20,000 bases of DNA from an uncultured virus (IMG/VR IMGVR_UViG_2875292628_000003) (taxonomy: Duplodnaviria > Heunggongvirae > Uroviricota > Caudoviricetes). Every line of letters starts with the position of its first letter. Positions within the stretch are counted from its first letter, which is position 1. The stretch lies in IMG/VR virus record IMGVR_UViG_2875292628_000003. One strand, written 5' to 3'. The translations under genes and the position numbers were made by a program. The notes under the pieces are model-generated. The model searched no databases. It was not told the DNA's origin and worked only from the letters and a program-made list of their open reading frames with translations. Below are positions 1 through 18,727 of this stretch, piece after piece.

Positions 1-268
1 CAGCTACAGAAGCTGTTTTGTCTAGTTCTGGCTCAATAGTAAAACCAAGAACCCAGTCGGCTGAAACACCGTATTTTTGACATAGCACCGAAAGTAATTC
101 TGCATCTGGCATTAACTTACCATTTTCGATTTCACTCATTCGGTTTTTATGTGGTGTACCGAATATCTCTAAAGCTACGTCTTCTTGACGTAATTGAGCC
201 ATATCACGCGCCATTGCAAGTTTTCTTCCAATAAGTACTCGACGTTGCAAATCGCTCTTTTTCGCCAT
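1..268 (-). CDS. XRE-family helix-turn-helix protein (3' end runs off the window)
   Basis: Not in the ORF track. Manual translation from the ATG at 268, directly after the TAA of the upstream ORF: MAKKSDLQRRVLIGRKLAMARDMAQLRQEDVALEIFGTPHKNRMSEIENGKLMPDAELLSVLCQKYGVSADWVLG. This fits the XRE pattern (R..LRQEDVA...SEIENGK..P...GVSADW.LG). Confidence 0.85.
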   Translation of the reverse strand, partial: MAKKSDLQRRVLIGRKLAMARDMAQLRQEDVALEIFGTPHKNRMSEIENGKLMPDAELLSVLCQKYGVSADWVLGFTIEPELDKTASVA

Positions 269-958
269 TTAAATGCTTCTCCCAGCTAACCAATCAAAAT
301 CTACAGTTTTTGACAACCAATCAGTTTCATCAGTAAAAACGCACGAAAGCCAGACACAACCCTCTTCACATGGTTCTGCCAGCTTAATTTGTTCACTTAT
401 GAAAATATTGTCGTCTTTGAATAACAAGCCATCACCTTTGACACTATCAATTAGTAGTTTTGGATAGTTATCAATATCAAATCGTGGATAAGTTTTAGCG
501 CTGTAAGAACGAGTTTTAAGTGGTGGCTGAACAATTAACCGTATTTCACAAAGTTGATCGATAGCTTTTAACTTAAGTGCTCTAAACATAGGTCCATATT
601 GTTTTTGAACCTTGTCCTTATACTTTTTAGCACCTACTGAAAGACTATTTCTTTGCTTTCCGTTCTGATCAATTGTAGCCCGCCAAATCTCGTTAGCGCT
701 TAATCCATAAGGCAATTTGATTGTGATGTATTGCTTACCAAAAATGATAACACCACCTGTACTTCCCCTATACACACTATTTTCACCATCATTTTCTTTT
801 TCTACATGGCACGGGAAAAACACATGTTTATTTGAGCTAGCTTTATGCTTTTTAACTTTGTCATTACCTGATGAAACACTGAAATCCTTAAAGAATTCCT
901 GTCTTTTATTATTGGAGAAAAACTCGCTCCACTGACGGCGGTTACTTTTTTTAATCAT
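269..958 (-). CDS. rusA: RusA-family Holliday junction resolvase with N-terminal extension
   Basis: RusA motif DIDNYPKLLIDSV...KDDNIF (DxDNxxK..D..DD) and LPYGLSANEIWR. GAGG SD lies upstream. The position downstream of phage replication genes is typical. Confidence 0.8.
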   Translation of the reverse strand: MIKKSNRRQWSEFFSNNKRQEFFKDFSVSSGNDKVKKHKASSNKHVFFPCHVEKENDGENSVYRGSTGGVIIFGKQYITIKLPYGLSANEIWRATIDQNGKQRNSLSVGAKKYKDKVQKQYGPMFRALKLKAIDQLCEIRLIVQPPLKTRSYSAKTYPRFDIDNYPKLLIDSVKGDGLLFKDDNIFISEQIKLAEPCEEGCVWLSCVFTDETDWLSKTVDFDWLAGRSI

Positions 959-1490
959 AACGACCTCAAATCAAGCAAGTAAGATTTACATAAACTTGAA
1001 GCTCTTCTTGCATGACATAATCCTTAAAAACACTTAGTTCCAGAATTATTAACCGTTAGATTTATTTAGAAGTACCCTTGTTCCAATTCATTATTTTTGT
1101 TTGTAAAAAAATGCTCTCTTTTATATATGCAAAATATATTGATCCTCAAAAAAACATCGAGCTGGTCCTACTTACCAATGTGTCAGCACTTTTAGGATAG
1201 GGGCCCCTATCATTTCCTTCTTTTTAGTAATTTAATATCCAAACCCTTTTTACGTAGGATTTGCATCACACACCAAAATTTTAAAGGCCACATCTAGTTT
1301 CCCTTTATTATAAAATTATTACCTAGGGGTTGTTTAGAAATCTAAAACTTTTATAACTCTTACTCAGAAATTCTCTTTTTCATCAACCATAAATTACATA
1401 AAATATTATATTTATCCACAACTTAAATAAGCTTGATTCTTTAATTGATAAACTCACTAGAATAATATTTCTTAAAATAATAGGAGTATA

Positions 1491-1519
1491 TTGACAGAAA
1501 AAAGCTAAAATATTACTCT
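1491..1519 (+). promoter_or_regulatory. Candidate sigma70 promoter for the small membrane peptide ORF
   Basis: TTGACA (1491-1496), 17-bp spacer, TACTCT (1514-1519). Confidence 0.5.
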
Positions 1520-1552
1520 CTAAAAGTTTTCTTCATAAAAAAGCATCAAAAA

Positions 1553-1648
1553 ATGAAAACTATCATCGTAGCTTTTGTACTCTCAGCAATTTTGATCATT
1601 CTATCATTTTTATTTTACATGATTATAAAAACCCATTATAAGAAATAA
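1553..1648 (+). CDS. 31-aa single-transmembrane peptide (unannotated small ORF)
   Basis: MKTIIVAFVLSAILIILSFLFYMIIKTHYKK*: an uninterrupted hydrophobic run with a basic C-terminal tail, a promoter upstream and a hairpin downstream. No clear SD. Confidence 0.45.
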   Translation: MKTIIVAFVLSAILIILSFLFYMIIKTHYKK

Positions 1649-1657
1649 CAAAGAATT

Positions 1658-1690
1658 AAAAAAGCTCATTTCCGAACCAGAAATGAGCTT
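1658..1690 (-). terminator. Rho-independent terminator (U-tract on the minus strand)
   Basis: Perfect 11-bp stem AAGCTCATTTC (1662-1672) / GAAATGAGCTT (1680-1690), 7-nt loop, A-run at 1658-1663. Confidence 0.65.
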
Positions 1691-1920
1691 ATGAAATCCA
1701 CATAAACCTGAAATACTAAGTATGGCTACTTAGCAATATTAAATTAAATGAATTTCTTTGAAGAATCAATATTTTTTTTAAAAAAGTATCTAAAAAAATT
1801 TAAAATTATTACAAATATTATAATTATAGCTTTTAGCAAAGTTAATTTCTTTGCTGCTACAAAAAAGTAAAAGTTCAAAAAGAATAAAACTTCTAAAATT
1901 AGTTAACGGGACTAAGAAAA

Positions 1921-2376
1921 CTATTTTTTAAAAGTTGCTTTATAATGTTTGGAATTAAAATAATTTACAATCTCTTCCCCATTATTTTGATTTTTTTCTA
2001 AATTTAAGGTTAAAAAATCTAATTCCGATTCCAAATTTATAAACTCGGGAATATATTCTTTGATAGGAGGGGGTGGCTTAGGGCCCCCTTCAGTAATTTT
2101 TTGAATAAACCCAGCTAACCATAAAATGTATTCTTCTCTTAAATTATAAGAAGGAATCAAACTTACATCAATCTTTACCTTACAATCATTTTTACTTTTA
2201 CTCAGTACTTCATTGAAATCAATAAAATTATATTTCAGCTTATATTCTGTACCCTTAATTTCTTTTCGAATCACCTTCATAAGAATATACATATTTTCTA
2301 AAACATCTTTAGAAAATAGTTTTTCATTTTTCATTTTTTTGTAAATAGTCTCAGCAAGAAAAAGATATTGTGGCAT
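1921..2376 (-). CDS. Hypothetical protein, AT-rich moron-like gene
   Basis: 151-aa ORF with a conserved-looking EYILWLAGFI...GGPKPPPP segment, isolated between two minus-strand terminators. Confidence 0.7.
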   Translation of the reverse strand: MPQYLFLAETIYKKMKNEKLFSKDVLENMYILMKVIRKEIKGTEYKLKYNFIDFNEVLSKSKNDCKVKIDVSLIPSYNLREEYILWLAGFIQKITEGGPKPPPPIKEYIPEFINLESELDFLTLNLEKNQNNGEEIVNYFNSKHYKATFKK

Positions 2377-2511
2377 GTTACAAATTCCATTTCATAATTT
2401 CCTCTTATTCTATAATATAGAATTATTAAATTAATATTACAAGAATTTACTCAAAGTTTTTTATTTTAAATTTTGAAGTAATATCAAAATATTAAGATAG
2501 TAATTCCTAAT

Positions 2512-2545
2512 AAAAAGGTCTATTTCTTTTTTAAGAAATAGACCT
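2512..2545 (-). terminator. Rho-independent terminator ending the leftward replication operon
   Basis: 13-bp stem AGGTCTATTTCTT (2516-2528) / AAGAAATAGACCT (2533-2545), 4-nt loop, A-run at 2512-2516. Confidence 0.65.
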
Positions 2546-2638
2546 AGCGAAAAAAGCGCTCAAACCTAAAAATGGCTGATTTAGTATTAGCTGCCCTTAT
2601 TCAAGTTGGTACTATTAAGTAATTTAGAAAATGCTCAA

Positions 2639-2835
2639 TTAACCTCTCTCTTTAAATTTCTCTGCTTCCATCTAGTCCCTACATCTTATGAAATGGACCC
2701 CATATTGCATTCATATTCTTGAGCTGCTTCTCTTCGTAGTTAAGCCTTTTTCTGATTAGCTTGAACTTGGGTCGGGGTTAGCTTGTTTGGATTGTATTTT
2801 TTTGAGCGTTTTTTGCTGGTTGCTTTAGATTTCAT
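2639..2835 (-). pseudogene. Degenerate phage gene remnant
   Basis: The ATG overlaps the upstream stop (ATGA) and reads MKSKATSKKRSKKYNPNKLTPTQVQANQKKA*LRREAAQEYECNMGSIS*DVG. Protein-like sequence continues through the in-frame stops. The distal end is approximate. Confidence 0.5.
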
Positions 2836-3365
2836 TTGCACCCACCCCCTTTAGCTCTTAACTTTTCAGCAACTAAACGATCAGCTACACGCTTAACTCG
2901 ATTCCAAACAAAGTTGTGATCAATTTCAGAACGACCTTGATAAATACGTTCAAGTTGAAATGCCGTAACTGAATAATCCACTTCTAAGGCCAGTAAATCC
3001 CAATCTTCATTAAAAGCTGTAGCGTAGGGGGTCAATTGGTTTTTCTGTGCCCAAATACGCAATTGGCGAGCATCTGGACCACGCTTTACAACTGGTTTTG
3101 GCTTAGATTTGATTAAACCAGTGGAAAGCGCCCATTCAACACAAGTTTCGCAACGACAACATAAACGCTTGTACATAGGGCCGGTGCCGTGAGGCATATT
3201 GAGATCACGCCCTAAAGACTCAACCTGTCGGATTTTATTACCAGGATGTTTCAGCCATTTCTTAACTGCTTTTTCTAATGCTTTTCGCTCATCAGATTTA
3301 GCTGCTACGTTTGAGTAAGCAACTAATGCGTATTCAGATTTTTTCATATCAATAAATGCGTTCAC
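2832..3365 (-). CDS. Hypothetical phage protein with small Cys/His cluster (HGT...CCRCETC)
   Basis: 177-aa ORF overlapping the DnaC-like gene by 4 bp (GTGA start/stop coupling, GGAGG SD). The HGT-x-Y...CRC..C pattern suggests metal binding. Confidence 0.75.
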   Translation of the reverse strand: MNAFIDMKKSEYALVAYSNVAAKSDERKALEKAVKKWLKHPGNKIRQVESLGRDLNMPHGTGPMYKRLCCRCETCVEWALSTGLIKSKPKPVVKRGPDARQLRIWAQKNQLTPYATAFNEDWDLLALEVDYSVTAFQLERIYQGRSEIDHNFVWNRVKRVADRLVAEKLRAKGGGCK

Positions 3366-4126
3366 TGTGCTTTACCTCCACCTATACGAGCATCATCCCA
3401 ATCACATTCCACAATATCTAAGCCATCATGTTGAAATCTTGACCATAGACGGTCCCCAAGATCTTCGCGGACCTCAGAAAGACTTAGGTTTGAAATCACA
3501 ACTGTTGGCTTCAACTCGTCATAACGAGTGAGTAGAACCTTATGAACACTTTCAAGAAGTTGAGGACGTTTTTCAGCACGGTCATGTAAACCGTATTCAT
3601 CAATAATTAATAAATCTTTTTTTACATAGCGTTTTAGCGCTTCATCTTCACTATCACCACTACGGCGATAGGCACCCGCGATATCTTCAGCTAGATCTGC
3701 AGACGTAATGTAAATAGCTTCCCAGTTCTTAATGATGATATTTTTCAGAATTGATGAACCTAGATGTGTTTTACCCGTACCAGTACGGCCGACAAGAAGT
3801 AAATTTCGAAAAACACCTGAATTGAAATCCATAGTGAACTTTTCACAAGTTTTACGAGCTTTGTCTTGTCCTTTGTGAGTTACTGCATAGTTGCTAAAGC
3901 CGCTATTTACATGTCTTTTAGGGATACCAGCTCGAGCCATTTTCAAATTTAAAATACGATTGTTCTTATCGCTTTCATATTTTTCATTTGACTGCTTCAT
4001 GATTTTTTCAACACAAGACTGACAAACGATTCGACCATGTACATTGATCATTTGTTCTTTGTGGATCTTACAGATCTGGTTTGTATGGGAAATTTTATAT
4101 TCCAATTTTTGAGGCACTGCGTTCAT
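3362..4126 (-). CDS. dnaC: DnaC/IstB-like AAA+ helicase loader
   Basis: N-terminal CKIH...CQSC zinc motif, AGIPKRH, Walker A GRTGTGKTH, Walker B LLIIDEYG, and C-terminal ISNLS...LGDRLWSR. Confidence 0.9.
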   Translation of the reverse strand: MNAVPQKLEYKISHTNQICKIHKEQMINVHGRIVCQSCVEKIMKQSNEKYESDKNNRILNLKMARAGIPKRHVNSGFSNYAVTHKGQDKARKTCEKFTMDFNSGVFRNLLLVGRTGTGKTHLGSSILKNIIIKNWEAIYITSADLAEDIAGAYRRSGDSEDEALKRYVKKDLLIIDEYGLHDRAEKRPQLLESVHKVLLTRYDELKPTVVISNLSLSEVREDLGDRLWSRFQHDGLDIVECDWDDARIGGGKAQ

Positions 4127-5166
4127 ATCAATTCACCCTTCACAGCTGTGTGAGCAACCGGTTCATATTTCTTTGGCGCGCCCCATTGATCATTTACATT
4201 GCGTGGTAACGATTGATGGTTTGACTGTTGACCGGTAGTCATTTCGGGTTTTTCGTTTAGGTACCAAGATGCTTTGAAGGCACCCCAAGGATTTTGTCTT
4301 TTCAAACAATATTCGACGGCTTGCTGCAGTGTGATTCCTGCTTTTTGGGCTTCATTCAAAAGTGCTTCAAAAGCGTTTTCGGTGTTTTGAGCTTTCTTGG
4401 CTTTACGAACTTGTAAGAACTCAGCAGCGTCTTTCTCAGGTACACCATTTTTTTTCAAAGCACTCTTGAAACTAAATTTTGTTTGAGTCGATGAATCAAC
4501 TTCGCCAACGGCGGAGTTGTTATTACCTTCTGGATTCTGATTAAAGGTTTCAGGATTCAGTGAATCAGGATTCAGATTAAAGGATTCAGGATTCAGGGCG
4601 TTTTGGTCTGAGATAGAAACAGTTTTAGAACCGTTATCTAACTGTTCTTGTTTGTTCCCACTACTGTTTGCTTGATTCGATTCGTTATCTTGATAACTGT
4701 TTTCAACAGCAGAACCAGTATTTTGAGGGGCAAACGGTCCTGTTTTATCGTAAAAATGCTTTAAATCAGCTTTATTTAACTGAATTGGTTTTCCAACAAT
4801 TGTTTTGTTTTTCGGGTTACGTTCATAGACAGTGTAGATACCATTACGGTCAGGTAATTCACTGTCTTTCTCTAGCCCGTGCGGGTTTTGATGTTTAACA
4901 AAGTTAACGATATGGATAACATCAATACCATCAGCGTTATATAACTCGATAAAACCGAACTTAGAAATGTTCTCTAACTGTTCTGCAACGTTTATATCGT
5001 CTGCAGGAAATAAAGACATTTTGATTTTCTTAGGTCGATTTTCGAGTCGGCCTTCGCGATCTGCTAAAGTCCAAAGACCAATAAATAGCAATCGTGCTTC
5101 ATAAGGTAATTCAATAATGTCTTCATTCATAAAGAATGAGGGCTTAATATTTCTAGATCTTGCCAT
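4123..5166 (-). CDS. Phage replication initiator / replisome organiser (module 2)
   Basis: N-terminus MARSRNIKPSFF...ARLLFIGLWTLADREGRLE is typical of phage initiators. It has a low-complexity repeat-containing linker and lies directly upstream of the DnaC-like loader. Confidence 0.85.
   Translation of the reverse strand: MARSRNIKPSFFMNEDIIELPYEARLLFIGLWTLADREGRLENRPKKIKMSLFPADDINVAEQLENISKFGFIELYNADGIDVIHIVNFVKHQNPHGLEKDSELPDRNGIYTVYERNPKNKTIVGKPIQLNKADLKHFYDKTGPFAPQNTGSAVENSYQDNESNQANSSGNKQEQLDNGSKTVSISDQNALNPESFNLNPDSLNPETFNQNPEGNNNSAVGEVDSSTQTKFSFKSALKKNGVPEKDAAEFLQVRKAKKAQNTENAFEALLNEAQKAGITLQQAVEYCLKRQNPWGAFKASWYLNEKPEMTTGQQSNHQSLPRNVNDQWGAPKKYEPVAHTAVKGELI
4529..4597. repeat. Cluster of (A)GGATTCAG direct repeats inside initiator 2, candidate origin element
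   Basis: tggattctga-ttaaaggtttc-aggattcag-tgaatc-aggattcag-attaa-aggattc-aggattcag, encoding LNPESFNLNPDSLNPETFNQNPE. Confidence 0.6.
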
Positions 5167-5169
5167 TTC

Positions 5170-5643
5170 TTAAGCTGCCTCATATAAGTGTTCATGTGCA
5201 AAATTTGCACGTACTAAAGCTTCAGAGAATTGAGGAGGTACGGAATTACCTACCATTCTTCCCTGTTCTGTCTTAGTTAATTTGATAGTGTTTCCATGTT
5301 CATCGATCCCATGATCAATGATGTAAGTAGGTTCAAAACCTTGTGCTGTGAATAGTTCTCTTGGCTGAAGCATACGGAAGCCAATATCAACAATTTGGTG
5401 CAGCTCCCCTTTAACATTCAGCAAGTCCTTTGCAAACTGAGTTGCTTTGTAAGTTGCGTATGAGTCCTTTTCCAAGTAGCCGCTTTTAATTAATTCCTGC
5501 ACATAGCATTGGATAGTGTTGTTAGGTGCATCTAACACATGGTCATGCAAATCCTTCATCGTGAAAGGTTGTGTTGCATGTGTAGCGAATAACAAAATGT
5601 CAAAAATGTTTTGGAATGCTTTAACTCGTTTTATTGCTTTCAC
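5170..5643 (-). CDS. Chimeric ORF: winged-HTH phage protein fused to the C-terminal fragment of a C5 DNA cytosine methyltransferase
   Basis: Residues 1-81 look like a small wHTH (FTMKDLHDHVLDAPNNTIQCYVQELIKSGYLEK). Residues 82-157 (IVDIGFRMLQPRELFTAQGF...GNSVPPQFSEALVRAN) match C5-MTase motifs IX and X. Motifs I-VIII, including the catalytic PC, are absent. Confidence 0.75.
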   Translation of the reverse strand: MKAIKRVKAFQNIFDILLFATHATQPFTMKDLHDHVLDAPNNTIQCYVQELIKSGYLEKDSYATYKATQFAKDLLNVKGELHQIVDIGFRMLQPRELFTAQGFEPTYIIDHGIDEHGNTIKLTKTEQGRMVGNSVPPQFSEALVRANFAHEHLYEAA

Positions 5644-7013
5644 GCTGCACCTCTCTCTTCCATAGACTGGTAATACTCAGGGCTTAAGTCAGCGAAAGTT
5701 GCGCGTGACAAGTCTGTAGCTAATCGAACTGTGCCAATTGAGCCGTTACGAGCCTTACCTATGATGATTTCTGCTGTACCTGCTTCTTTAGAATCCTTGT
5801 TGTAGACTTCATCGCGGTAAATAAACATGATGATGTCTGCGTCTTGCTCTAAGTCGCCTGATTCTTTTAGATCTGCATTTACAGGGCGTTTGTTTGGGCG
5901 GTTCTCTAAGTTACGGTTAAGCTGTGCTAGTGCGATCACAGGACAATCAAAGTCACCTGCCATACGCTTAAGCTCATTAGATATTTCACCGATATCTTTG
6001 TCAGAACGACCAAAGTTGTTTTTAGTGAGTGGTGTTACTTTCTGGATGTAATCAACAAAGATTGCGCCAATCTTTCCGTATTTGGCTTGAACCTTCTTAG
6101 CTGATCTGCGGATAGTTGCCACAGTTGCGCGGTTGTTGTCGTCGATCATCAAAGGTGCTTTCTCAAGTACCAGAGCAGCGTTATTCACCTTCTGTGTATC
6201 GTCGCTATTTGGATCAATATGTCCTGTTAATACTTTGCGTAGCTCTACCCCACCAATGCCACTAATTAAACGCTGTGCAATCTGTCTGCCCTTCATTTCG
6301 ATTGAGATAAACAGAACTGGTAAAGACTGGTTAATCATCATGTCTGCTGCAATGTTTTGAGCAAACGTTGTTTTACCCATTGAAGGACGCGCACCAATGA
6401 TGACTAGATCGCCTTTGCTGATTTCACCTAGTTTGTTGTCCAGAGCAGTAAAGCCAGTCTTGATACCGCCCTCATAAGGCATTTGGTTATGAATTGCCAT
6501 GTGGCGATCAAGGAACTCTTTTACAGCTTCTTTTGAAAACTCATGAGCATGTTTAAGCTTTTCCTCACCAGCACCAAAATCTAAGTTTTGAACTAACGAT
6601 TGTGCTTTGTTCACAGCAGATTCAGCAGTGTGAGTTGCCATGTCGTTAGCGATCGAACTAATCAACTTGCTAGTCTCTTGAAGCTTTCTGCGAGTAGAGA
6701 AATCTTTTAGCTTTTTGATGTGTGTTACTAACAAGCTCACATTGCTTGCGCGGTTCATGAGGTTCACAAGAAACTGCTCATCGATTTGGTTTGCTTCAAG
6801 CGGATTAGCTTTAATCAACTCGAATACAGTCACCTCATCAAACGCTTCACCCTTATTCAATTGGCTCTTGATGTGGGCAAAGATGATCTGGTGTTGTGAT
6901 GCATAGAAATCTTGTGCATCGATCTGAGAGATAAACTCATCTGCTGCCTGATCGATTGTCATGAACGTAGACAAGATGCTTTGCTCAACAGGGATAGAAA
7001 ATAATTCAATCAT
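5640..7013 (-). CDS. dnaB: Phage-encoded DnaB-family replicative helicase
   Basis: GIKTGFTALD, Walker A GARPSMGKTT, FVDYIQ, LAQLNRNLENRPNKRP, DLKESGDLEQDADIIMFIYRD, KARNG. Confidence 0.96.
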   Translation of the reverse strand: MIELFSIPVEQSILSTFMTIDQAADEFISQIDAQDFYASQHQIIFAHIKSQLNKGEAFDEVTVFELIKANPLEANQIDEQFLVNLMNRASNVSLLVTHIKKLKDFSTRRKLQETSKLISSIANDMATHTAESAVNKAQSLVQNLDFGAGEEKLKHAHEFSKEAVKEFLDRHMAIHNQMPYEGGIKTGFTALDNKLGEISKGDLVIIGARPSMGKTTFAQNIAADMMINQSLPVLFISIEMKGRQIAQRLISGIGGVELRKVLTGHIDPNSDDTQKVNNAALVLEKAPLMIDDNNRATVATIRRSAKKVQAKYGKIGAIFVDYIQKVTPLTKNNFGRSDKDIGEISNELKRMAGDFDCPVIALAQLNRNLENRPNKRPVNADLKESGDLEQDADIIMFIYRDEVYNKDSKEAGTAEIIIGKARNGSIGTVRLATDLSRATFADLSPEYYQSMEERGAA

Positions 7014-7900
7014 TGGTCCATCCCCTTAAATTTCTTAGCAACACCTTTGAATTGTGTTGCTGGTTGTTCAGGGATAGTTTGTTGCTGCTCAGCAACTGGA
7101 TTTTCTAATTGCTCAAGCTCTGCATTTGTCTCTTGCCAGTTCCAAGCAGCTTTGAAAGATTCCCAACCACGAACAACGATAATTTGGAATACACGCTCAT
7201 TGCTTAGCTTTGCTTCCTGAGCTTGTTTGAAAACAAGTTGTAAAGCACGTTGAGTTACTGGTTTTTTCTTCTTGTTGCGAAGATCAAGATATTCTGTTGC
7301 TGTTTGCTCAGATACTCCGTTTTTCAACAAGAAATCTTTCGCTTTGAATTTTTGTGTTTTTGGTGCTGAATCAGCACAAATAATATCTGTAGTATTCTCT
7401 GTGTATTCTCTGTATGTATTCTCTGTATTAGATGGGCGGACTTGTGCATTCAGTATGGCGGAATTGTGCATACAGTCTGGCGGATTTGTGCATTCAGTAT
7501 GGCTGTTCTGTGCATTCAGTATGGCGGAATTGTGCATACTATTAATATCAATGCTTTCAGAGTATTCGATCAAAGCTTGATATAGGTTTTCACGCTCTAC
7601 ACGGTAGTAAACACGACAAGGCACACCCATCTTTTTCTCAGAGATGAATTTAAGTGATTTAAGTGTTGCTCTGGCCGTATCTTGCTCACGACGAGTAAGA
7701 CCAGTTTCTTGAGTCCACTCATGATGTGTTTTAAAGATCCAACCTTCACTGTCTTTAGTGCGAGAAGTCCAGTAGACCAATTGAGAGAGCATTAATGCCC
7801 CATTGATCCCACATCCTAAAAATACATAGTGCTTGTTGAATGCTATTGGCTGTTCGTTCATAGCTTCAATCAACTTAATAATTGGAATTGATGCACCCAT
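7010..7900 (-). CDS. Phage replication initiator (module 1, O/gp18-like) containing iterons
   Basis: N-terminal wHTH-like region (LLSQLVYW-type ALMLSQLVYWT...WIFKTHHEWTQETGLTRREQDTAR), internal 22-bp repeats, and DnaB directly downstream. The ATG at 7900 (TGATG overlap) is preferred over the TTG at 7903. Confidence 0.85.
   Translation of the reverse strand: MGASIPIIKLIEAMNEQPIAFNKHYVFLGCGINGALMLSQLVYWTSRTKDSEGWIFKTHHEWTQETGLTRREQDTARATLKSLKFISEKKMGVPCRVYYRVERENLYQALIEYSESIDINSMHNSAILNAQNSHTECTNPPDCMHNSAILNAQVRPSNTENTYREYTENTTDIICADSAPKTQKFKAKDFLLKNGVSEQTATEYLDLRNKKKKPVTQRALQLVFKQAQEAKLSNERVFQIIVVRGWESFKAAWNWQETNAELEQLENPVAEQQQTIPEQPATQFKGVAKKFKGMDQ
7443..7540. repeat. Iteron array: about 4.4 tandem 22-bp repeats (putative origin)
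   Basis: TGTGCATTCAGTATGGCGGAAT (7443), TGTGCATACAGTCTGGCGGATT (7465), TGTGCATTCAGTATGGCTGTTC (7487), TGTGCATTCAGTATGGCGGAAT (7509), TGTGCATACT (7531). Adjacent GTATTCTCTGT x3 lies at about 7392-7426. Confidence 0.85.
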
Positions 7901-8058
7901 CAAACACCTCTCAATACAAATGCAGCTAAATCAGCTTTTGCTTTAGCCAATGCCATAGAGTTTTCGAGAGTTCGATTAAGCACATAAGCCTCAACCGCTT
8001 TTTGAAACAAACTAATCTTCCGATTTAGTTCAATGTCTGCTAATATTGAATAGTTCAT
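7900..8058 (-). CDS. 52-aa hypothetical phage protein
   Basis: Below the ORF-track cutoff: MNYSILADIELNRKISLFQKAVEAYVLNRTLENSMALAKAKADLAAFVLRGV*. It has an AAGGA SD, and its stop overlaps the initiator ATG. Confidence 0.75.
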   Translation of the reverse strand: MNYSILADIELNRKISLFQKAVEAYVLNRTLENSMALAKAKADLAAFVLRGV

Positions 8059-8082
8059 TTGGTCCTTCTCCGATTGAACGTG

Positions 8083-8116
8083 ACCGCTAACCTGTTCGCG
8101 CAGGAAGCGGTTTTTT
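8083..8116 (+). terminator. Terminator-like hairpin oriented antisense to the PR operon, at the cII 3' end
   Basis: ACCGCT-aa-CCTG-ttcgcg-CAGG-a-AGCGGT followed by TTTTT on the + strand. Confidence 0.6.
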
Positions 8117-8477
8117 AATATCCGAGTTCTTCATTAATTCCAAAGTCTTCAATGTCATCTTGAAAAAGATCATCGACTGAACCTAGGCGTCCCATATAAG
8201 CCTTTGATAGATTCAAAAGCGCTGCCAACTTTTCCTTGTGAATTAACTTGTATTTCTTCGGTACGATTTTTAATTCAAGCAAATCCAACATTGCGCAAAC
8301 ATTCTCAATATCTGACAAGCCATTGTTTTTCTTGTCATTTTTAAATCTTGAAAATGTAGTTGGATCTAGCCCCAACTTTTCAGCAATCTGGGAGTTATTA
8401 CTGTTTGCAAGAATGCGTAAAACCCTTGTAATGCTATTTCTCGCACTTGCACTCAATTCGGTTGATACTTTGCTCAT
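8115..8477 (-). CDS. cII: CII-like transcriptional activator
   Basis: Directly downstream of cro. HTH NSQIAEKLGLDPTTFSRFK followed by LDLLELKIVP, resembling the lambda CII family. Confidence 0.75.
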   Translation of the reverse strand: MSKVSTELSASARNSITRVLRILANSNNSQIAEKLGLDPTTFSRFKNDKKNNGLSDIENVCAMLDLLELKIVPKKYKLIHKEKLAALLNLSKAYMGRLGSVDDLFQDDIEDFGINEELGY

Positions 8478-8487
8478 GGTTTAGTTC

Positions 8488-8688
8488 CTAAGCGGTTAAT
8501 TGTTTTGAACAATATTCCTTCCATAAATTTTCTAGTTTTCTTCCTAGATCATATGAAAGGCGTTTCCCACATAACCCGCGCTCTAAATCACTAACGTAAT
8601 TCTGTGAGCACCCGATTTCTGCGGCTATAAATGTCTGAGTAAGACCCTTTTCCCTTAACTCAGAGATCATCTTCTGCCATTGATTCAT
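8488..8688 (-). CDS. cro: Cro-like HTH repressor (66 aa)
   Basis: GLTQTFIAAEIGCSQNYVSDLERG, divergent from cI. Start moved to the ATG at 8688 (GGAG SD) because the longer ORF runs through the operators. Confidence 0.85.
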   Translation of the reverse strand: MNQWQKMISELREKGLTQTFIAAEIGCSQNYVSDLERGLCGKRLSYDLGRKLENLWKEYCSKQLTA

Positions 8689-8713
8689 GGGCGGTCTCCG
8701 ATAATTTTTATTA

Positions 8714-8780
8714 AATATATAGGTTTTCCGATATTTATTCAATAGCCAAACCGATTGAAATATGTATCAGAATTCCGATA
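8714..8780. promoter_or_regulatory. OR operator triplet and PR promoter
   Basis: 16-bp imperfect palindromes (consensus WATCGG-N4-CCGATW): TATAGGTTTTCCGATA 8718-8733, AATAGCCAAACCGATT 8741-8756, TATCAGAATTCCGATA 8765-8780. Minus-strand promoter TTGAAT (8742-8737), 17 bp, TATATT (8719-8714). Confidence 0.8.
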
Positions 8781-8789
8781 GAAGTAACG

Positions 8790-9464
8790 ATGGACAAATT
8801 TATGGCTACTTTGGGCGAAAACTTAAAAGCAATTCGCAAAGCTAAGAAAATGACTCAAAAAGAACTGGCTATGAAGTCAGGTGTCAAACAATCTGTAATT
8901 TCTGATCTCGAAACAGGGAATGCCAAATCGACAGGCTCTATACTTGAGCTGGCTACCGCACTTGGTGTTACCGCAGAAGAGCTAAAAAAAGGAATTGTCA
9001 GTAAGTTTGACAATAATGTTGAGCCTATAACTAAAAAACTAATTCCCGTTCTTTCTTGGGTGCAGGCAGGGACAATGACATCAGTAGAAGCTATCGATCC
9101 TAATAAAATAAATGAATGGTTGCCACCACTTAGTGCAGATGATCCAGATGGTTGTTTTTATTTGAGAGTAGTTGGAGTAAGTAATTCCCCTAGATATGAA
9201 GAGGGAGACTACATTTTAGTTAATCCAAACTATCAAGTTTGCGATCTAATCGCTGATGACCTCATCGTTGTTAGAAATAATTCAGACGCAACCTTTAAGA
9301 AGCTTGTAATTGAAAGCGACCAGCGCAAATACTTGCAAGCATTAAACCCCAACTTCCATCCCAATATTATTGAATTTGAAGATGGTATGGAGCTCGTAGG
9401 CTTAGTTATTGATGCATTTAGACCATTAGGCGGATCACGTCCAAAGCGTGTTAGAAAAAGTTAA
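8790..9464 (+). CDS. cI: CI-like repressor (XRE HTH + S24 autopeptidase)
   Basis: HTH MTQKELAMKSGVKQSVISDLETG, cleavage-site region PVLSWVQAG, catalytic Ser region LRVVGVSNSP, Lys region ATFKKL. Alternative start at 8802. Confidence 0.93.
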   Translation: MDKFMATLGENLKAIRKAKKMTQKELAMKSGVKQSVISDLETGNAKSTGSILELATALGVTAEELKKGIVSKFDNNVEPITKKLIPVLSWVQAGTMTSVEAIDPNKINEWLPPLSADDPDGCFYLRVVGVSNSPRYEEGDYILVNPNYQVCDLIADDLIVVRNNSDATFKKLVIESDQRKYLQALNPNFHPNIIEFEDGMELVGLVIDAFRPLGGSRPKRVRKS

Positions 9465-9484
9465 ATTAAGGTTTTAGGTGATAT

Positions 9485-9700
9485 ATGGACAATTCAAAAC
9501 TACCAATCAACCAGATTATTGCTCGTATCAATGATGCAGCTAAACATGGTGAAGCTTTGGTGCTGACTGCTGAAGAGGTAAAGATTCTTTCTAAAGATAT
9601 TGGCGACAAGGTCTTTATTCCTGTGCTTACTAATGAGCAGGTCGTGCAGTTGGTAAAAGAAGGAAAGCTAGGCCAGAAAATTAATAACACCAAAGATTAA
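9485..9700 (+). CDS. Small hypothetical protein co-oriented with cI
   Basis: 71-aa ORF with AGGTGA SD, 20 bp after cI. Confidence 0.75.
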   Translation: MDNSKLPINQIIARINDAAKHGEALVLTAEEVKILSKDIGDKVFIPVLTNEQVVQLVKEGKLGQKINNTKD

Positions 9701-9704
9701 TAAG

Positions 9705-9727
9705 CTGTGAACCCGACACAGTCTTTT
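9705..9727 (+). terminator. Weak hairpin/terminator after the cI operon
   Basis: CTGTG-aacccga-CACAG followed by TCTTTT. Confidence 0.35.
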
Positions 9728-9832
9728 AAATGTGGGGTATATCACTTATTAGATAGTAATATTTATTGATGTTTTAGTGTGTAATGTGTAGATTGCCAAT
9801 AGTTTTTATAGTAGATATTGGGATTATGCAAT

Positions 9833-12100
9833 ATGTCTAATATTGAGCAAGATACACGTTTTATTGTTAACAATAATTTGATTAACAAGGGCTGGATCTT
9901 GGACATTCAAGATCCAAACAAAAATGTCTTTTTTGAATCAGATATCTTAAGAATTGTTAATAATGAGTTTCTCAAGAAAAGTAAAAAAAGACCCGATTAT
10001 GTTCTTTTCGATTCACAAAATAAGCGGCCAATCGGTGTAATTGAAACGAAATCAGGTGGAAAAAGCTTAACAAAAGCACTGGATCAGGCAACCGAATATG
10101 CTGAAATGCTTGATGCACCTTTGATATTTGCAATGAATAATGGTTTCTGCGAAACACGGCATTTGTATACCCAAAAACCATTATTTATTGATGAAAATGA
10201 GGTTAATGAATTAATAAGAGTAAATGAAGCTAAAGAGTTCATATTGCAGGAAACAAATGGTATTTATATTACACCTAAAGAAATTTTAGTCTCTCGCAAA
10301 GAGTTAATTAATGTTTTCAAGAAGTTAAATAACTCACTAAGAGGTGAAGGTTTAAGAGCTGGTATAGAAAGGCTTTCAGAATTTGCAAACATTCTTTTTT
10401 TAAAATTGTATACAGAGAATGCTAATACAGGTATTTGGAATTCTCTCAAAAGTCTCGATAATGATTTGCTAATTAATACAACTAATAACATACTACAAGA
10501 TATTGATAGACAATATGGTGCTTCTGTTTTTACAAATTTACAGCTAACCAACCCTGTTGCTGTTAAAGAGATGATCAAAGAGTTGGATAAGTTAAAACTC
10601 TCATCAATAGATACCGATATTAAAGGAGATGCTTTTGAGTATTTCTTACAGCAAGCTACAGCAACTAATAATGACTTAGGAGAATATTTTACTCCACGTC
10701 ACATAACTAAAACCATTGTTAACTTAGTCAACCCTAAATATGGTGAAAAGATCTATGACCCTTTTTGTGGGACAGGTGGTTTTTTAACAGAGGCATTTGA
10801 TCATATAAAAGATAACACTTTAATTGCAAACAATAGTAGTGAAGAAATCAAGCTTAAACATAATACTATTTTTGGAAGAGAAATTACCTCAAATGCAAAA
10901 CTCGCAAAAATGAATATGATTCTGCATGGGGATGGGCATAGTGGAATTTGCCAGATAGACACACTTCAAAACCCTATTGAATCTGAATATGATGTGGTTA
11001 TAACCAACATGCCATTTTCTCAAAAAACTTCTTATTCTCACTTATATGAGAATAAGTTAGCTAAAAACGATGGTGATGGAGTATGTGTTCTACATTGCTT
11101 TAAAGCAACAAAAAAAGGAGGGCGAATGGCATTAGTAGTACCTGAAGGCTTTCTTTTTAAAGCCGCTTTAGCTCCAGTAAGGAAGTATTTATTTGAAAAC
11201 GCCCAACTAAAAGCAGTAGTTTCACTTCCAAAAGAAGTTTTTCTGCCATATGCAAAAGTTAAAACCAATATACTCTACTTTACCAACTGTCATAATGGTA
11301 GAACAAATTCTGACGTTTTTTACTACAATGTGACAAATGATGGCCTAAGTTTAGATTCTTTCCGTAGAAAAATTGACGAAAATGATTTAAAAAATTTAGA
11401 TTTTGCTGATTTAAATAAGAGCGACTTTGATAAATATTATAATGAATTAGGTTTCTTAAAAGTTAATCCAGAATTAATCAGAAGCAATGATTATATTTAT
11501 AATTATGCTCACTATAGTAATTCACATATAAAATCAAAATTCCCAACTATAAAACTAAAAGAACTCCTATCCTTGTCTGGCAAAGTCAAAGTGGGAGAGG
11601 ATACAAATATACCTATTATGAGTATCACTATGGAACATGGCTTAATTGATCAGCATGAGAAATTTAAAAAACGAGTCGCAAGTTCTGATATTTCTGGGTA
11701 TAAAAAGGTTTTTAAAAATGAACTTGTAATGGGGTTCCCTATAGATGAAGGTGTTCTAGGATTTCAAAAATATTACGATGCTGCTGCCGTAAGCCCAGCA
11801 TACAAAATCTTTAGATTAAAACGAGAAGTTAATGTAGAATATTTGGATTTGATTTTGAGATCTAATTCTCTAAGAAAAATATACAAAAGTAAAATGCAAG
11901 GCAGTGTAGAGAGACGACGCAGTATTCCTGATGAAATGTTTTTGAATATTGAGATCCCGAATCCTCCTGAAGAGGTTAAAGATCAAATAGTAAAACAACA
12001 TAAACTAATAAAGGAAATTGAGAATAGTCTCAAGGAAAATCAAAAAAAATTGCGTCTAAAGACAGAAGCATTATGGGAACTTCCTCAAAATTACAACTAA
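9833..12100 (+). CDS. Single-chain type IIG/type I-like restriction-modification protein (HsdR_N-like nuclease + N6-adenine MTase + one specificity domain)
   Basis: PD-(D/E)xK motif RPDYVL...VIETK, GEYFTPR, motif I YDPFCGTGGFL, AKMNMILHG, motif IV NMPF, VVPEGFLF, and an HsdS-like tail (VSPAY...GSVERRRSI...IPNPPEEVKDQIV). The ATG at 9833 is preferred over the TTG at 9818. Confidence 0.88.
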   Translation: MSNIEQDTRFIVNNNLINKGWILDIQDPNKNVFFESDILRIVNNEFLKKSKKRPDYVLFDSQNKRPIGVIETKSGGKSLTKALDQATEYAEMLDAPLIFAMNNGFCETRHLYTQKPLFIDENEVNELIRVNEAKEFILQETNGIYITPKEILVSRKELINVFKKLNNSLRGEGLRAGIERLSEFANILFLKLYTENANTGIWNSLKSLDNDLLINTTNNILQDIDRQYGASVFTNLQLTNPVAVKEMIKELDKLKLSSIDTDIKGDAFEYFLQQATATNNDLGEYFTPRHITKTIVNLVNPKYGEKIYDPFCGTGGFLTEAFDHIKDNTLIANNSSEEIKLKHNTIFGREITSNAKLAKMNMILHGDGHSGICQIDTLQNPIESEYDVVITNMPFSQKTSYSHLYENKLAKNDGDGVCVLHCFKATKKGGRMALVVPEGFLFKAALAPVRKYLFENAQLKAVVSLPKEVFLPYAKVKTNILYFTNCHNGRTNSDVFYYNVTNDGLSLDSFRRKIDENDLKNLDFADLNKSDFDKYYNELGFLKVNPELIRSNDYIYNYAHYSNSHIKSKFPTIKLKELLSLSGKVKVGEDTNIPIMSITMEHGLIDQHEKFKKRVASSDISGYKKVFKNELVMGFPIDEGVLGFQKYYDAAAVSPAYKIFRLKREVNVEYLDLILRSNSLRKIYKSKMQGSVERRRSIPDEMFLNIEIPNPPEEVKDQIVKQHKLIKEIENSLKENQKKLRLKTEALWELPQNYN

Positions 12101-12111
12101 TCCCCCCTTCG

Positions 12112-12139
12112 AACCCACCACCACGGTGGGTTTTCTTTT
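12112..12139 (+). terminator. Rho-independent terminator insulating PL from the RM gene
   Basis: AACCCACC-accac-GGTGGGTT followed by TTCTTTT. Confidence 0.8.
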
Positions 12140-12157
12140 GTCTATTAAAGCATAAAA

Positions 12158-12220
12158 AATCGGATTTTCTATAAAAATATCGGATTACCTATTGACTAAT
12201 AATATCGGAAATGCGATATT
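12158..12220 (+). promoter_or_regulatory. OL operator triplet and PL promoter
   Basis: AATCGGATTTTCTATA 12158-12173, TATCGGATTACCTATT 12178-12193, TATCGGAAATGCGATA 12203-12218, all matching the OR consensus. TTGACT (12192-12197), 17 bp, GATATT (12215-12220). Confidence 0.82.
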
Positions 12221-12295
12221 TATCTCACAGACAACAAAAAAGCACACCGCCCCTCCCCAGGTCCGATGTGCTTTTGCAAAACTGCGAGATCAATT

Positions 12296-12736
12296 ATGAA
12301 CGTAAAAGCTCCTCCTTTCAACTCATTTGCATTTGTCAGCATGGCTGCTCTTGCAATTTCTGGTGGTTCTTTAGTTGCTTGCCAATTGCAGCCAGCTTTC
12401 CAAACAAAAGAAGTACCTACTCTTTTTACACCTAAAATTCAACCAAGTACTTACGGTGTGTTAACCGCGAAAATCACAGGTAAAGATTCTGGCGTTGCCG
12501 TCATCAAATTAGATAGCTTCCGTTTAAACGTTAGCTTTGATTTTGAAGCCTATCCAGACAGCTACGGCGTTCCAGGTTCTGAATTCACCGCTGTTGATAT
12601 TACCCAACTCACTGTAAATGAAATCACTGACATTAATGGTAAGTCATATAACGATTTCACCGAATTTGAAGACATCCGAAACATCAATGGTCTTCTAAAA
12701 GGCTTCATCGAACGTAACAAGTTGGTGGAGGCTTAA
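12296..12736 (+). CDS. First PL gene, hypothetical, with candidate lipoprotein signal
   Basis: Starts MNVKAPP (ATG 12296). The hydrophobic segment FAFVSMAALAISGGS is followed by LVAC (lipobox pattern). Confidence 0.7.
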   Translation: MNVKAPPFNSFAFVSMAALAISGGSLVACQLQPAFQTKEVPTLFTPKIQPSTYGVLTAKITGKDSGVAVIKLDSFRLNVSFDFEAYPDSYGVPGSEFTAVDITQLTVNEITDINGKSYNDFTEFEDIRNINGLLKGFIERNKLVEA

Positions 12737-12738
12737 AG

Positions 12739-13062
12739 ATGACTAATTTCAAAAAGCACCCTGATGGCTACATGTCATTTTTAGGCCGTGATGATAAGGG
12801 CCTCTACTCTGTTCGCATTGGCTGGCAAGTGTACGCATCTAATGCTAATGGCTCAGTTCTTTACAAAGTTAAAGACGGAGTTAAGACGCCTTTAAATGTG
12901 TTCAGGTTCCAAACTTCTTATCCAAAAGTTTGGAATGAACTCACCCAAGAAATCGATTTTCAGCGCAGAAAGCAGCTCGCTATAAAACTGCGTGAAACAA
13001 ACATCCCTACCTATGACCGCAAAGCTTATAAAACTAAGCGCGGCTTCACTGGCTCAAGATGA
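12739..13062 (+). CDS. Hypothetical phage early protein
   Basis: 107-aa ORF with GGAGG SD, tightly packed in the operon. Confidence 0.8.
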   Translation: MTNFKKHPDGYMSFLGRDDKGLYSVRIGWQVYASNANGSVLYKVKDGVKTPLNVFRFQTSYPKVWNELTQEIDFQRRKQLAIKLRETNIPTYDRKAYKTKRGFTGSR

Positions 13063-13073
13063 GGATAAGAAAA

Positions 13074-14195
13074 ATGGCGTTACCGATTATTACTGCTGAC
13101 CAAACTTTATTGGTTCAAGCAATTATTGTGTACCTATACGCTGATCCGGGTTTAGGTAAATCATCGATGGGCTTTACTGCGGAAAAAGCAATTTCTTTTG
13201 ACTTTGACCGTGGTGCTCACCGTACTGGTGAATTACGTCGTGGTGCGGTTGTACAGGTTCAACAATGGAGTGATGTTGCAAACCTTACTCCGCAGGACTT
13301 AGCACCATATAAAACCGTAGTCATTGATACCGTGGGTGCAATGCTTGAATGCATTAAAACCCACCTGTTACTTACGGCAAATAACCGTCAAAAAGATGGT
13401 TCTTTAAAGTTAAAGGCTCAAGGTTTAGCGAACCAAACGTTCAAGCAATACATCAATACTTTGATCAGTTTAGGTAAAGATGTTGTTTTCATTGCACACG
13501 CATCAGAAGATCAAAACGGTGATCAAATTATTTACCGACCAGATCTAGGTGGTAAAAACCGCAACGAGCTTTACCGTATCGCAGATGTCATGGGTTATCT
13601 AACAACTGTTACTACTGGTGAAGGTAAAAATGCCCGCGTTATTAATTTCAAACCTTCGCCTACACATCATGCGAAAAACTCTGGTGCTTTAGGCGGTGAA
13701 ACCGGTGAAGTATGGGTACCTGATCTTAAAGCACACCCTACTTTCTTGGCTGACCTGATTACTCAAGCTAAAGATCACATTAACACCTTAACGCCTGCAC
13801 AACTTGCAGCAGCTAAAGCCCAAGAAGAGCTAGAAAACTGGAAACAAAGCTGTGAAGAAGCTGAGCATGCAGGTGACCTTAATCAATTAACTGAGTCGCT
13901 TGATAAAGAACACATGTATTACCAGAACATGCGACAAGCAATGTTAATGAGAGCTAAAGCATTGAATTGCACGTTTGATAAGCAACGTGGCACTTGGATT
14001 AGTCCACCAGAATTTAACGGTATCTCAGATCAACAAAGAGATGAACTTCAAAACTTTATTGCTGAACGTGGCCTCGATGTAAAAACAGTTTGTGAGCATT
14101 TAGGTATCGATGCCCTTATTCAAATTGAAGCTGCAAAGCTACCAGCAGTGAAACAAGAAATTGAAACCTTAGCGAAAACGGGGATGACAGCATGA
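13074..14195 (+). CDS. AAA_24/Sak4-like P-loop ATPase (probable phage recombinase)
   Basis: YLYADPGLGKSS (Walker A), FDFDRG, VVIDT (Walker B), VVFIAH, ADVMGYL. Located in the PL recombination slot. ATG at 13074 with GAGGA SD. Confidence 0.8.
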   Translation: MALPIITADQTLLVQAIIVYLYADPGLGKSSMGFTAEKAISFDFDRGAHRTGELRRGAVVQVQQWSDVANLTPQDLAPYKTVVIDTVGAMLECIKTHLLLTANNRQKDGSLKLKAQGLANQTFKQYINTLISLGKDVVFIAHASEDQNGDQIIYRPDLGGKNRNELYRIADVMGYLTTVTTGEGKNARVINFKPSPTHHAKNSGALGGETGEVWVPDLKAHPTFLADLITQAKDHINTLTPAQLAAAKAQEELENWKQSCEEAEHAGDLNQLTESLDKEHMYYQNMRQAMLMRAKALNCTFDKQRGTWISPPEFNGISDQQRDELQNFIAERGLDVKTVCEHLGIDALIQIEAAKLPAVKQEIETLAKTGMTA

Positions 14196-15268: not shown

Positions 15269-15269
15269 C

Positions 15270-15515: not shown

Positions 15516-15517
15516 AA

Positions 15518-16109: not shown

Positions 16110-16588
16110 ATGCACAAATTTTAGATCCATGCTGCGGTTCAAAGATGATGTGGTTTGATCGAAACAACCCAAATGTAGTGTATGGAGATATTCGAAAAGA
16201 AGAACATACATTATGTGATGGTCGTACCTTAGTGATTGAACCAGATGTATTAATGGACTTTCGCAAAATGCCTTTTAACGATGAGCAATTTTCTTTAGTC
16301 GTTTTTGACCCTCCCCATCTTGTGCAAGCTGGAAAGAAAAGTTGGTTAGCTGCCAAATATGGAAAATTGTCACAGGATTGGCGTGAGGATATACAAAAAG
16401 GTTTTTCGGAATGCTTCCGTGTTTTAGTGAAAGGTGGAGTTTTAATTTTCAAATGGAATGAAGCACAGATCAAAGTTAGTGAAATCTTAGAGCTAACAGA
16501 TCAAAAGCCATTGTTTGGCCACATTAGTGGAAAGCGCAGCAATACACATTGGATTACTTTTATGAAAGCGGAAAATAAGGAGGGGTAA
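16106..16588 (+). CDS. Orphan phage class I SAM-dependent (probably amino-DNA) methyltransferase
   Basis: ILDPCCGSKMMWF (SAM-binding motif I), VVFDPPH (motif IV-like), ECFRVLVKGGVLIFKWNE. Confidence 0.85.
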   Translation: MNAQILDPCCGSKMMWFDRNNPNVVYGDIRKEEHTLCDGRTLVIEPDVLMDFRKMPFNDEQFSLVVFDPPHLVQAGKKSWLAAKYGKLSQDWREDIQKGFSECFRVLVKGGVLIFKWNEAQIKVSEILELTDQKPLFGHISGKRSNTHWITFMKAENKEG

Positions 16589-16858
16589 ATGTTAAAAGAT
16601 CTGAGAAATCTATCTGATGCAGAGCAACAAGAATATTTGGATCGCTTCATAATGGCTAATGAAGAACAGAAGTTCCCTCAAGAAGTTGTGGCGCTTTATT
16701 TAGATTGCTCACCATGGACATTAGCCAGAATGCGTTGTGATCAATCATCACTGCCTTTTTCGAAAATTGGAAGACGTGTTTCATATAAAAAGAAAGACGT
16801 TTTAAAGTATGAGCAAAGCAGGACTGTGCTTAATACAGCGCAACTTGCAACTGTATAA
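16589..16858 (+). CDS. Excisionase-like HTH DNA-binding protein
   Basis: EVVALYLDCSPWTLARMR...PFSKIGRRVSYKKKDV (MerR/HTH_17 Xis-like pattern). It is the last gene of the PL operon before the integrase region. Confidence 0.75.
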   Translation: MLKDLRNLSDAEQQEYLDRFIMANEEQKFPQEVVALYLDCSPWTLARMRCDQSSLPFSKIGRRVSYKKKDVLKYEQSRTVLNTAQLATV

Positions 16859-16918
16859 GGATTCAGTTAAGAAATAATTGTAGTTTCCATGATAAATATT
16901 GGGTGACAAATAATTAAA

Positions 16919-16964: not shown

Positions 16965-16995
16965 TTGATTGCCCAAATCTCTTTAGGACTTAATT

Positions 16996-17607: not shown

Positions 17608-17643
17608 ATCTTCAACAGCAAATAGGCAAAAGTTGATGAGAAA

Positions 17644-18726: not shown

Positions 18727-18727
18727 T

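Follow-up and report, generated by a model that had tools for sequence, protein, structure and literature searches.

How can a single phage open reading frame (ORF) begin as a regulator-like protein and end as a fragment of a DNA methyltransferase? This question is raised by a 157-aa ORF lying on the minus strand at positions 5170..5643 of the window, by which we mean the whole 20,000-nucleotide stretch of viral DNA that was analyzed. A first-pass annotation, made from the sequence alone, had described in this ORF an abrupt in-frame switch (...LLNVKGEL|HQIVDIGFRML) from a protein resembling a winged helix-turn-helix (wHTH) to motifs IX and X of a C5-cytosine methyltransferase (MTase), and had explained it by a prophage-prophage fusion. 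Here, we trace both halves of the ORF to their parents, and we conclude that it is very probably the scar of recombination between two temperate Acinetobacter phage genomes.

Results

The ORF Is Split between Two Protein Families

The ORF starts with a GTG codon, which overlaps the stop codon of the DnaB gene as GTGA, and ends with a TAA codon followed after 3 nt by the ATG of a 347-aa replication initiator (TAA GAA ATG). This MTase stop and initiator start are the native ones, unchanged in the hybrid when compared with G001, the nearest genome in the comparison, the prophage of which carries the intact MTase. The initiator also has its own GAGG about 11 nt 5' of its ATG. The fusion protein is probably expressed via its retained native coupling to DnaB, and the hybrid ORF may, as the first-pass annotation proposed, preserve translation into the second initiator. 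On the minus strand there is also a 46-aa ORF in a different frame (5277-5417), which starts at an ATG within AATGTTAAAGGGG and crosses the joint; it was taken as spurious.

Searching the PHROGs profiles cleanly splits the chimera, with residues 2-79 and residues 55-156 matching different families. In Pfam, the N-terminal half gives only weak winged-helix hints and the C-terminal half a marginal match to PF00145. When the chimera was compared by tblastn to 50,697 phage records, 142 records matched and none of them (0/142) covers at least 80% of the query. In 31 Acinetobacter phage records, the match is confined to residues 1-81 or 5-81, with 90-99% identity, while the other 111 of the 142 show less than 60% identity and, among the matches listed, concern the C-terminal part and are mostly annotated as cytosine methyltransferases. 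Likewise, no two-part homologue was found in 5.8 billion clusters, where proteins of 86-275 aa cover at most 54% of the query.

These coverage figures speak against a natural two-part domain architecture, in which the 83-aa and 492-aa proteins described below would be unrelated look-alikes or fission products. Such an architecture is also at odds with the DNA identity of 98-100% to each parent, which stops abruptly on either side, and with a MTase remnant that starts in the middle of a conserved enzyme fold. We found no point in its support and consider it refuted, its probability being practically nil. The widespread two-part homologues that the first-pass annotation had named as evidence against a fusion were not encountered.

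The N-Terminal Half Comes from a Vieuvirus Winged-Helix Protein

Codons 1-81 (5401..5643, minus strand) correspond to a wHTH protein of Vieuvirus phages, which has 83 aa when standalone and of which only the last two residues (KA) are missing. By tblastn, residues 1-81 are 98.8% identical to the 83-aa protein of phage Attikon1, the sole difference being the GTG start read as V, and they match the copy in provirus G002 at 79 of 81 positions. The Attikon1 protein ends in ...LLNVKGELKA, followed by its stop. The gene stands alone in G002 and also in Attikon1 and phi4197; in the latter two, its 252-nt ORF encodes 83 aa and is located 3' of DnaB. In the parental phages, the gene's stop and the following gene's ATG overlap as ATGA, and the Shine-Dalgarno (SD)-like AAAGGGGAG lies 8 nt 5' of that ATG, just as expected by the first-pass annotation for the natural end of a coupled gene. 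At the DNA level, megablast of window 3000-8000 gave 99.9-100% identity to Vieuvirus phages (Attikon1, Ftm, SA1, Gln, Eva, phi4197 and others), stopping at 5401.

The N-terminal half had been expected to hit standalone proteins of roughly 80-85 aa, and it is 83-aa proteins that were found. Among representative relatives of the 83-aa protein, 33 of 34 are 46-115 aa long; the window's copy falls outside a standalone size of ~80-100 aa, being 157 aa owing to the fusion. The matching PHROGs family is phrog_6336 (unknown function, 81 positions), of which profile positions 4-81 align with chimera residues 2-79 (E 2.5e-39). No Pfam family was found at cutoff for the winged-helix protein.

We predicted the structure of the chimera with AlphaFold2, using an alignment (A6) of the chimera and 29 relatives of the 83-aa protein, i.e., N-terminal relatives only. 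Two combined alignments (A4 and A5) were dropped because MAFFT had set methylase fragments on the winged-helix half. The predicted N-terminal domain, with a pLDDT of ~97 over residues 11-70, has three helices followed by a wing of two strands and a further, short helix (H-H-H-strand-strand-H). Residues 82-157 show a pLDDT of ~50 with zero alignment coverage, a low confidence that says little about this part since the alignment had N-terminal relatives only. When the model of the chimera was compared with the PDB using Foldseek, nothing was found at E ≤0.001, and the top matches are all winged-helix regulators (MarR, IclR, ArsR/HlyU and PadR) with a probability of 0.97-1.0 and E values of at least 0.0096. 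Superposition gave 2.1 Å over 71 columns for 5y6i_A and 3.3 Å over 76 columns for 2obp_A. The consistency of this top list, at E ~0.01, points to a winged-helix fold for the N-terminal half.

The C-Terminal Half Is the Remnant of a C5-Methyltransferase

Codons 82-157 and the stop (5170..5400, minus strand) represent residues 417-492 of a 492-aa C5-cytosine MTase and carry motifs IX and X. Over its residues 77-157, the chimera shows no difference from residues 412-492 of the G001 MTase, and BLASTP between the two proteins gives 82/84 over residues 74-157, the match to the C terminus of a long C5-MTase that had been anticipated. Across the homologous stretch, the G001 protein reads ...GLVMVKGELHQIVDIG..., or in longer form ...RDRFGLVMVKGELHQIVDIGFRML...YEAA. 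The 231-nt remnant shows 100% DNA identity to nine IMG/VR proviruses in which the gene is intact. As for the profile searches, PF00145 scores 21.9 bits on the chimera (profile positions 229-320 of 324), just under its gathering cutoff of 22, and 104.3 bits on the intact G001 parent. The DNA-methyltransferase families phrog_116 and phrog_23072 match chimera residues 55-156 with E values of 3e-25 and 2.5e-19, respectively. The G001 parent also matches DNMT1 and bacterial C5-MTase structures. Judged by its matches, the 492-aa protein of G001 is a bona fide C5-MTase, while the assignment of the C-terminal fragment is real but weak.

The conserved motifs of C5-MTases include the N-terminal AdoMet-binding and catalytic motifs I (FxGxG), IV (PC) and VI (ENV) and the C-terminal motifs IX (RE..QGF) and X (GNSVP). 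The chimera has QPRELFTAQGF and GNSVPP within residues 93-138, which align, via the parent, with GNAVPP of DNMT1 chains and also with PHROG MTase families. The DNFAGGGG, SPDC and ENV stretches of the parent, located in residues 16-130, are absent from the chimera. The deletion took 411-416 of the 492 MTase residues, the figure varying with the parent to which the five shared VKGEL residues are attributed. With them went all of the catalytic motifs seen in the parent, an arginine-rich stretch and the entire target-recognition region with its repeats. The first-pass annotation had proposed that the catalytic half of the MTase was removed; this loss is real, but its extent is far more than half. 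Since motifs I-VIII and the target-recognition region are missing, and with them all that AdoMet binding and catalysis require, the methylase of the hybrid is dead and the remnant can have no methyltransferase activity. The 157-aa ORF should not carry a methyltransferase annotation.

The intact G001 MTase (L003:268-1746), which is absent from the window, shows four spaced (D/R/H)EPL(R/H)TI repeats between its catalytic core and motif IX. Two of the four are followed by H..ALV.AF....Y.G, and the same repeats are seen in related metagenome fragments. Tandem target-recognition modules occur in multispecific phage C5-methylases.

Besides G001, we inspected 48 IMG/VR loci with a full-length relative of the 347-aa initiator (L009-L056, with the slot directly upstream of the initiator at ~1400-3000 in each). 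The chimera is present in none of them (0/48). This slot is always filled by a large gene, of which there are three alternative kinds: the intact 492-aa C5-MTase (32 loci, as in G001), a 519/527-aa C5-MTase-like protein (6 loci) and a 356-381-aa ORF (9 loci), with L030 as the one further locus. L030 was tried as a second joint and rejected, as it has a 235-aa disrupted copy instead, which aligns collinearly with an intact locus (97.7% identity, 4 gap positions).

The Two Parents Meet in a 15-nt Microhomology

Identity to the Vieuvirus phages ends at 5401 and identity to G001 ends at 5415, so that, with both parents in hand, the abrupt in-frame switch described by the first-pass annotation is confirmed. 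The joint lies in GTTAAAGGGGAGCTG (VKGEL; 5401..5415, minus strand), a 15-nt microhomology that is common to both parents with one mismatch at 5407, i.e., 8 + 6 nt of the form GTTAAAGG-G/T-GAGCTG. In a three-way DNA alignment, the window and the Vieuvirus parent have GTTAAAGGGGAGCTG and G001 has GTTAAAGGTGAGCTG, with flanks that are unalignable on both sides. Blastn between the parents detected no other similarity across the joint. Microhomology at the KGEL codons had been proposed, and (V)KGEL is indeed encoded in both parents.

Base 5407 is informative: the MTase alleles have a T, while the hybrid has a G like the wHTH parent. The MTase-side motif is found in 31 of the 48 IMG/VR initiator loci, all of which (31/31) read GGT where the hybrid reads GGG. 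Because the hybrid has the base of the wHTH parent, the simplest placement of the exchange would confine it to the ~6 nt of GAGCTG (5401-5406). The fusion is in frame without any need of selection, since the two genes read these 15 nt in one and the same frame, as VKGEL.

Such matches are frequent. Between 20 kb of G002 and the 40-kb G001 prophage region, we counted 75 short co-oriented 15-mers with at most one mismatch; the same count after shuffling (three shuffles) was 43-52. Because microhomologies of such quality are common by chance, we assign the event to the short-homology (illegitimate) class of recombination. By this count, the left-hand joint is a chance microhomology and not a conserved linker.

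The Joint Is Found in Contigs and Runs of Several Studies

Short-read assemblers can join sequences at repeats, and one strain (below) has both parental sequences, which is what could be said for an assembly artefact, i.e., a chimeric contig across the shared 15-mer. However, the run index that we used is built on 31-letter words, longer than the 15-nt repeat, and of the 25 words sampled from 5250-5550, all are present in 14 runs (13 samples, 8 studies, 2015-2020). A ninth study has four runs with 84% of the sampled words. Moreover, single contigs from three runs of three different studies bridge the joint with 0 differences: X1 (window 2415-7472), X12 (1913-7472) and X2 (1-7472), in contigs of 5,058, 5,560 and 12,630 bases, respectively. 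There are no parental loose ends at the joint in those runs. A check on sequence spanning the joint had been called for, and these contigs provide it. Finally, the exact 157-aa protein is found on 14 contigs, the longest of 3.92 Mb, and clusters with the 83-aa proteins, one form of which occurs on at least 995 contigs. The bridging contigs and the 14 contigs with the exact protein largely exclude the misassembly that the first-pass annotation had named as a reason for doubt. We consider the artefact already largely refuted and its probability extremely low.

The spread of the joint has to be read with care: all 14 runs were flagged as possible sources of the window DNA and may represent one clone, so that they show the joint to be real and do not imply a repeated origin. 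The exact 46-nt junction string gave 0 matches in viral, genome and metagenome contig collections, which indicates rarity at most.

Another run, X15, is instructive with regard to the parents. One of its contigs matches window 1-5415 and continues into methylase sequence, while a second matches 5401-7472 and continues into the Vieuvirus KA-stop and the next gene. Since these contigs diverge at 5401 and 5415, one strain carries both unrecombined parents. Both parents may have been resident prophages at the time of the event.

In X1, X2 and X12, contig depth at 12007-16008 is ~2-3 times that of the flanks, and a joint 15503>16086 was seen in all four runs, as was a loose end at 16109. This depth rise, together with the extra joint and loose end, indicates that the host genomes carry further related prophages sharing parts of the left arm.

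A Vieuvirus Early Block on a G001-Type Backbone

G001 matches window 3-5415 (98%) and 16565-20000, two segments separated by 11.6 kb in G001 and by 11.2 kb in the window. For provirus G002 and the isolated phage Ftm, all matches fall within 5401-16591, where they are interrupted by small mosaic gaps. Since the flanks match G001 and Vieuvirus matches only 5401-16591, we read the window as a G001-type prophage with a replaced early block, in which an 11.2-kb Vieuvirus early block (5401-16591) would take the place of an 11.6-kb G001-type one. The flanks had been expected to identify two parents, and they did so in the form of Vieuvirus phages and a G001-type prophage. The prophage-prophage fusion of the first-pass annotation thus holds in that two phage lineages are joined, but they are not joined end to end: the product is one prophage-sized mosaic with its 11.2-kb early block swapped.

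The backbone retained from the G001 type comprises the integrase module (integrase at 18738-20000+, shared with G001), the region of an ImmA-like regulator, the second initiator, the DnaC-like loader and downstream genes. The early block of G001 extends into the methylase gene as far as its middle and contains, among others, a CI-like repressor, a Cro-like repressor and an HNH gene. The Vieuvirus block brings in CII-like (8115-8477), Cro-like (8488-8742) and CI-like (8790-9464) regulators and a Sak4-like single-strand annealing protein (13059..14195, plus strand). It also has a small SAM-methyltransferase, and the hybrid keeps two methyltransferase-like genes besides the lost C5-methylase.

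Two further proteins deserve mention. A 760-aa protein of the Vieuvirus block, encoded in the phage left arm (9818-12100, plus strand), has an HSDR_N-like N terminus and a N6_Mtase domain (PF02384, 184 bits); no adjacent specificity or restriction subunit was seen, and its annotation in related phages is that of a type I M subunit. A 360-aa protein (17644-18726, plus strand), which adjoins the integrase in a region 99% shared with G001, matches phrog_2439 "transcriptional regulator" (E 2.6e-109), and its residues 149-275 match phrog_87 "metallo-protease" (E 4.5e-15). These matches point to a regulator of the ImmA/IrrE type.

The right-hand edge of the Vieuvirus block (16565..16591, plus strand) is a conserved linker of ~28 nt that consists of the end of the SAM-methyltransferase gene, an SD and the ATG of an 89-aa gene, and that is common to the window, G001 and G002. 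The two edges might have arisen together, if two short homologies served for a double exchange in a kind of natural recombineering. Alternatively, since G001, G002 and the phages are relatives rather than the parents themselves, the right edge may have existed before the left event.

This bears on another topology, in which a single microhomology crossover or deletion took place between two prophages sharing integrase and att site, either in tandem or as a superinfecting phage and a resident, the right edge being an older and unrelated boundary. Vieuvirus late genes, att site, integrase and G001-type early genes would then have been removed in one step. We keep this single crossover, or tandem-prophage deletion, as a serious minority reading because phages with this integrase module and Vieuvirus-like left arms exist: Ab105-1phi and AbTJ match roughly window 12220-20000 in four pieces, and Acba_1, which has an 83-aa gene at 91% identity together with the same integrase module, matches 16080-20000. 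The strain of run X15, moreover, has both parental types. However, the closest Vieuvirus relatives (Ftm, SA1, Gln, Eva and G002; 98-100%) all diverge at 16591 into another excisionase and integrase, and no tandem arrangement was observed.

On the left flank (1-5400), blastn against the phage collection gave matches at 1-1099 and 1922-2376 only, from which it follows that the G001-type replication region is not among the deposited phages.

Two Replication Modules Stand Side by Side in the Hybrid

The joint brings together two sets of replication genes, all on the minus strand. From the Vieuvirus side come an O-like replication initiator (7010..7903), with five tandem 22-nt iteron-like repeats at 7435-7544, and a DnaB-like replicative helicase (5640..7013). 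From the G001-type side come the second, 347-aa initiator (4123..5166), with 15-21-nt tandem repeats at 4529-4596, and a DnaC-like helicase loader (3362..4126). The hybrid operon thus reads O-like initiator and DnaB, then 347-aa initiator and DnaC-like loader. With a repeat array inside each of its initiator genes, this single prophage has two candidate origins. In all four runs, the Logan contigs are interrupted at 7472/7510, inside the 7435-7544 array.

Could the fusion have been kept by selection, either for a new function of the wHTH with its tail (altered DNA or partner binding) or for a read-through that sustains expression of initiator and loader? The ORF is intact and identical on 14 contigs with runs dated 2015-2020, both coupling signals are kept (GTGA with DnaB, and TAA GAA ATG before the initiator) and the N-terminal domain folds confidently. 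However, the shared frame follows automatically from VKGEL and needs no selection, the runs with the fusion may derive from a single clone in which there has been little time for decay, and the initiator has a GAGG of its own. In addition, the remnant is without every catalytic motif, and its predicted fold is of low confidence. We therefore regard selection as unlikely and read the fusion as a tolerated scar, with low odds of a function for the tail.

A bolder proposal is that the hybrid is a viable phage that depends on the joined features, with dual modules and a dual origin, and with the wHTH and its methylase-derived tail acting as a neomorphic regulator or adaptor. We find this very doubtful. 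If true, a random microhomology event would have led to a functional new gene and a dual-origin phage persisting in a clinical lineage.

Discussion

The two parents of the 157-aa ORF, its breakpoint, its frame and its occurrence in several isolates are direct observations, which we explain as follows. The first parent would be a Vieuvirus phage with an early right operon of cro, cII, O-like initiator, DnaB and the 83-aa winged-helix protein. The second would be a G001-type prophage, the operon of which includes HNH, the 492-aa C5-MTase, the 347-aa initiator and the DnaC-like loader. Strand exchange inside the chance 15-nt match, in the VKGEL frame common to both, would have yielded 81 of the 83 winged-helix residues followed by the last 76 methylase residues (motifs IX and X), in a hybrid where Vieuvirus immunity, left-arm and O/DnaB genes sit on a G001-type backbone. 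As for the mechanism, we infer short-homology annealing or illegitimate recombination, possibly aided by the phage's Sak4-like annealing protein, which is a candidate catalyst of such a short-homology exchange. The hybrid is presumably viable.

The event had both a cost and a product: it destroyed a phage methyltransferase, while it created an in-frame chimeric ORF and gave the prophage a new immunity and two replication modules. The joint is also a simple lineage marker for Acinetobacter genomics.

How does this joint compare with known cases? In its accessible portion, PMC3945230 presents the debate on phage mosaics as one between relaxed homologous recombination and random illegitimate joining followed by selection, and considers illegitimate events to be probably much rarer than relaxed homologous recombination. 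At the present joint, there is no homeologous flank, and the locus is a clean natural example of the illegitimate route at base resolution. PMC3945230 and PMC2327257 both deal with the Hendrix-type model and the mosaic "novel joints" that temperate phages form by illegitimate or short-homology recombination. Our joint shares with these an abrupt boundary, few shared bases, a conserved gene order and the swapping of whole modules (immunity/replication versus integrase/late). In contrast to these, it lies within two genes instead of between genes, with an in-frame chimeric ORF as the result; furthermore, both parental forms are available here at 98-100%, with one strain having both. In the accessible portions of the literature on Acinetobacter prophage mosaicism and methyltransferases, nothing specific to this joint was apparent.

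The two edges of the block differ in this respect. The right edge is like the linkers at module borders of lambda-type phages (~28 nt, gene end-SD-next start, in three otherwise different phages). The left edge is unlike them, in that it is a match by chance, of a quality found ~75 times between the two genomes.

At the protein level, the chimera keeps the position and GTGA coupling of the Vieuvirus 83-aa protein (phrog_6336; WYA90093.1 in Attikon1, "transcriptional regulator" in Ftm and SA1), but the last two residues and stop of the latter are replaced by 76 methylase residues, and the next Vieuvirus genes, which begin at the ATGA start, are gone. With the intact 492-aa MTase, it shares the last 76-81 residues, the stop and the spacing to the initiator, but is without residues 1 to 411-416. 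The joint is the outcome of a known process, a mosaic joint rather than a new kind, but one that is exceptionally well resolved.
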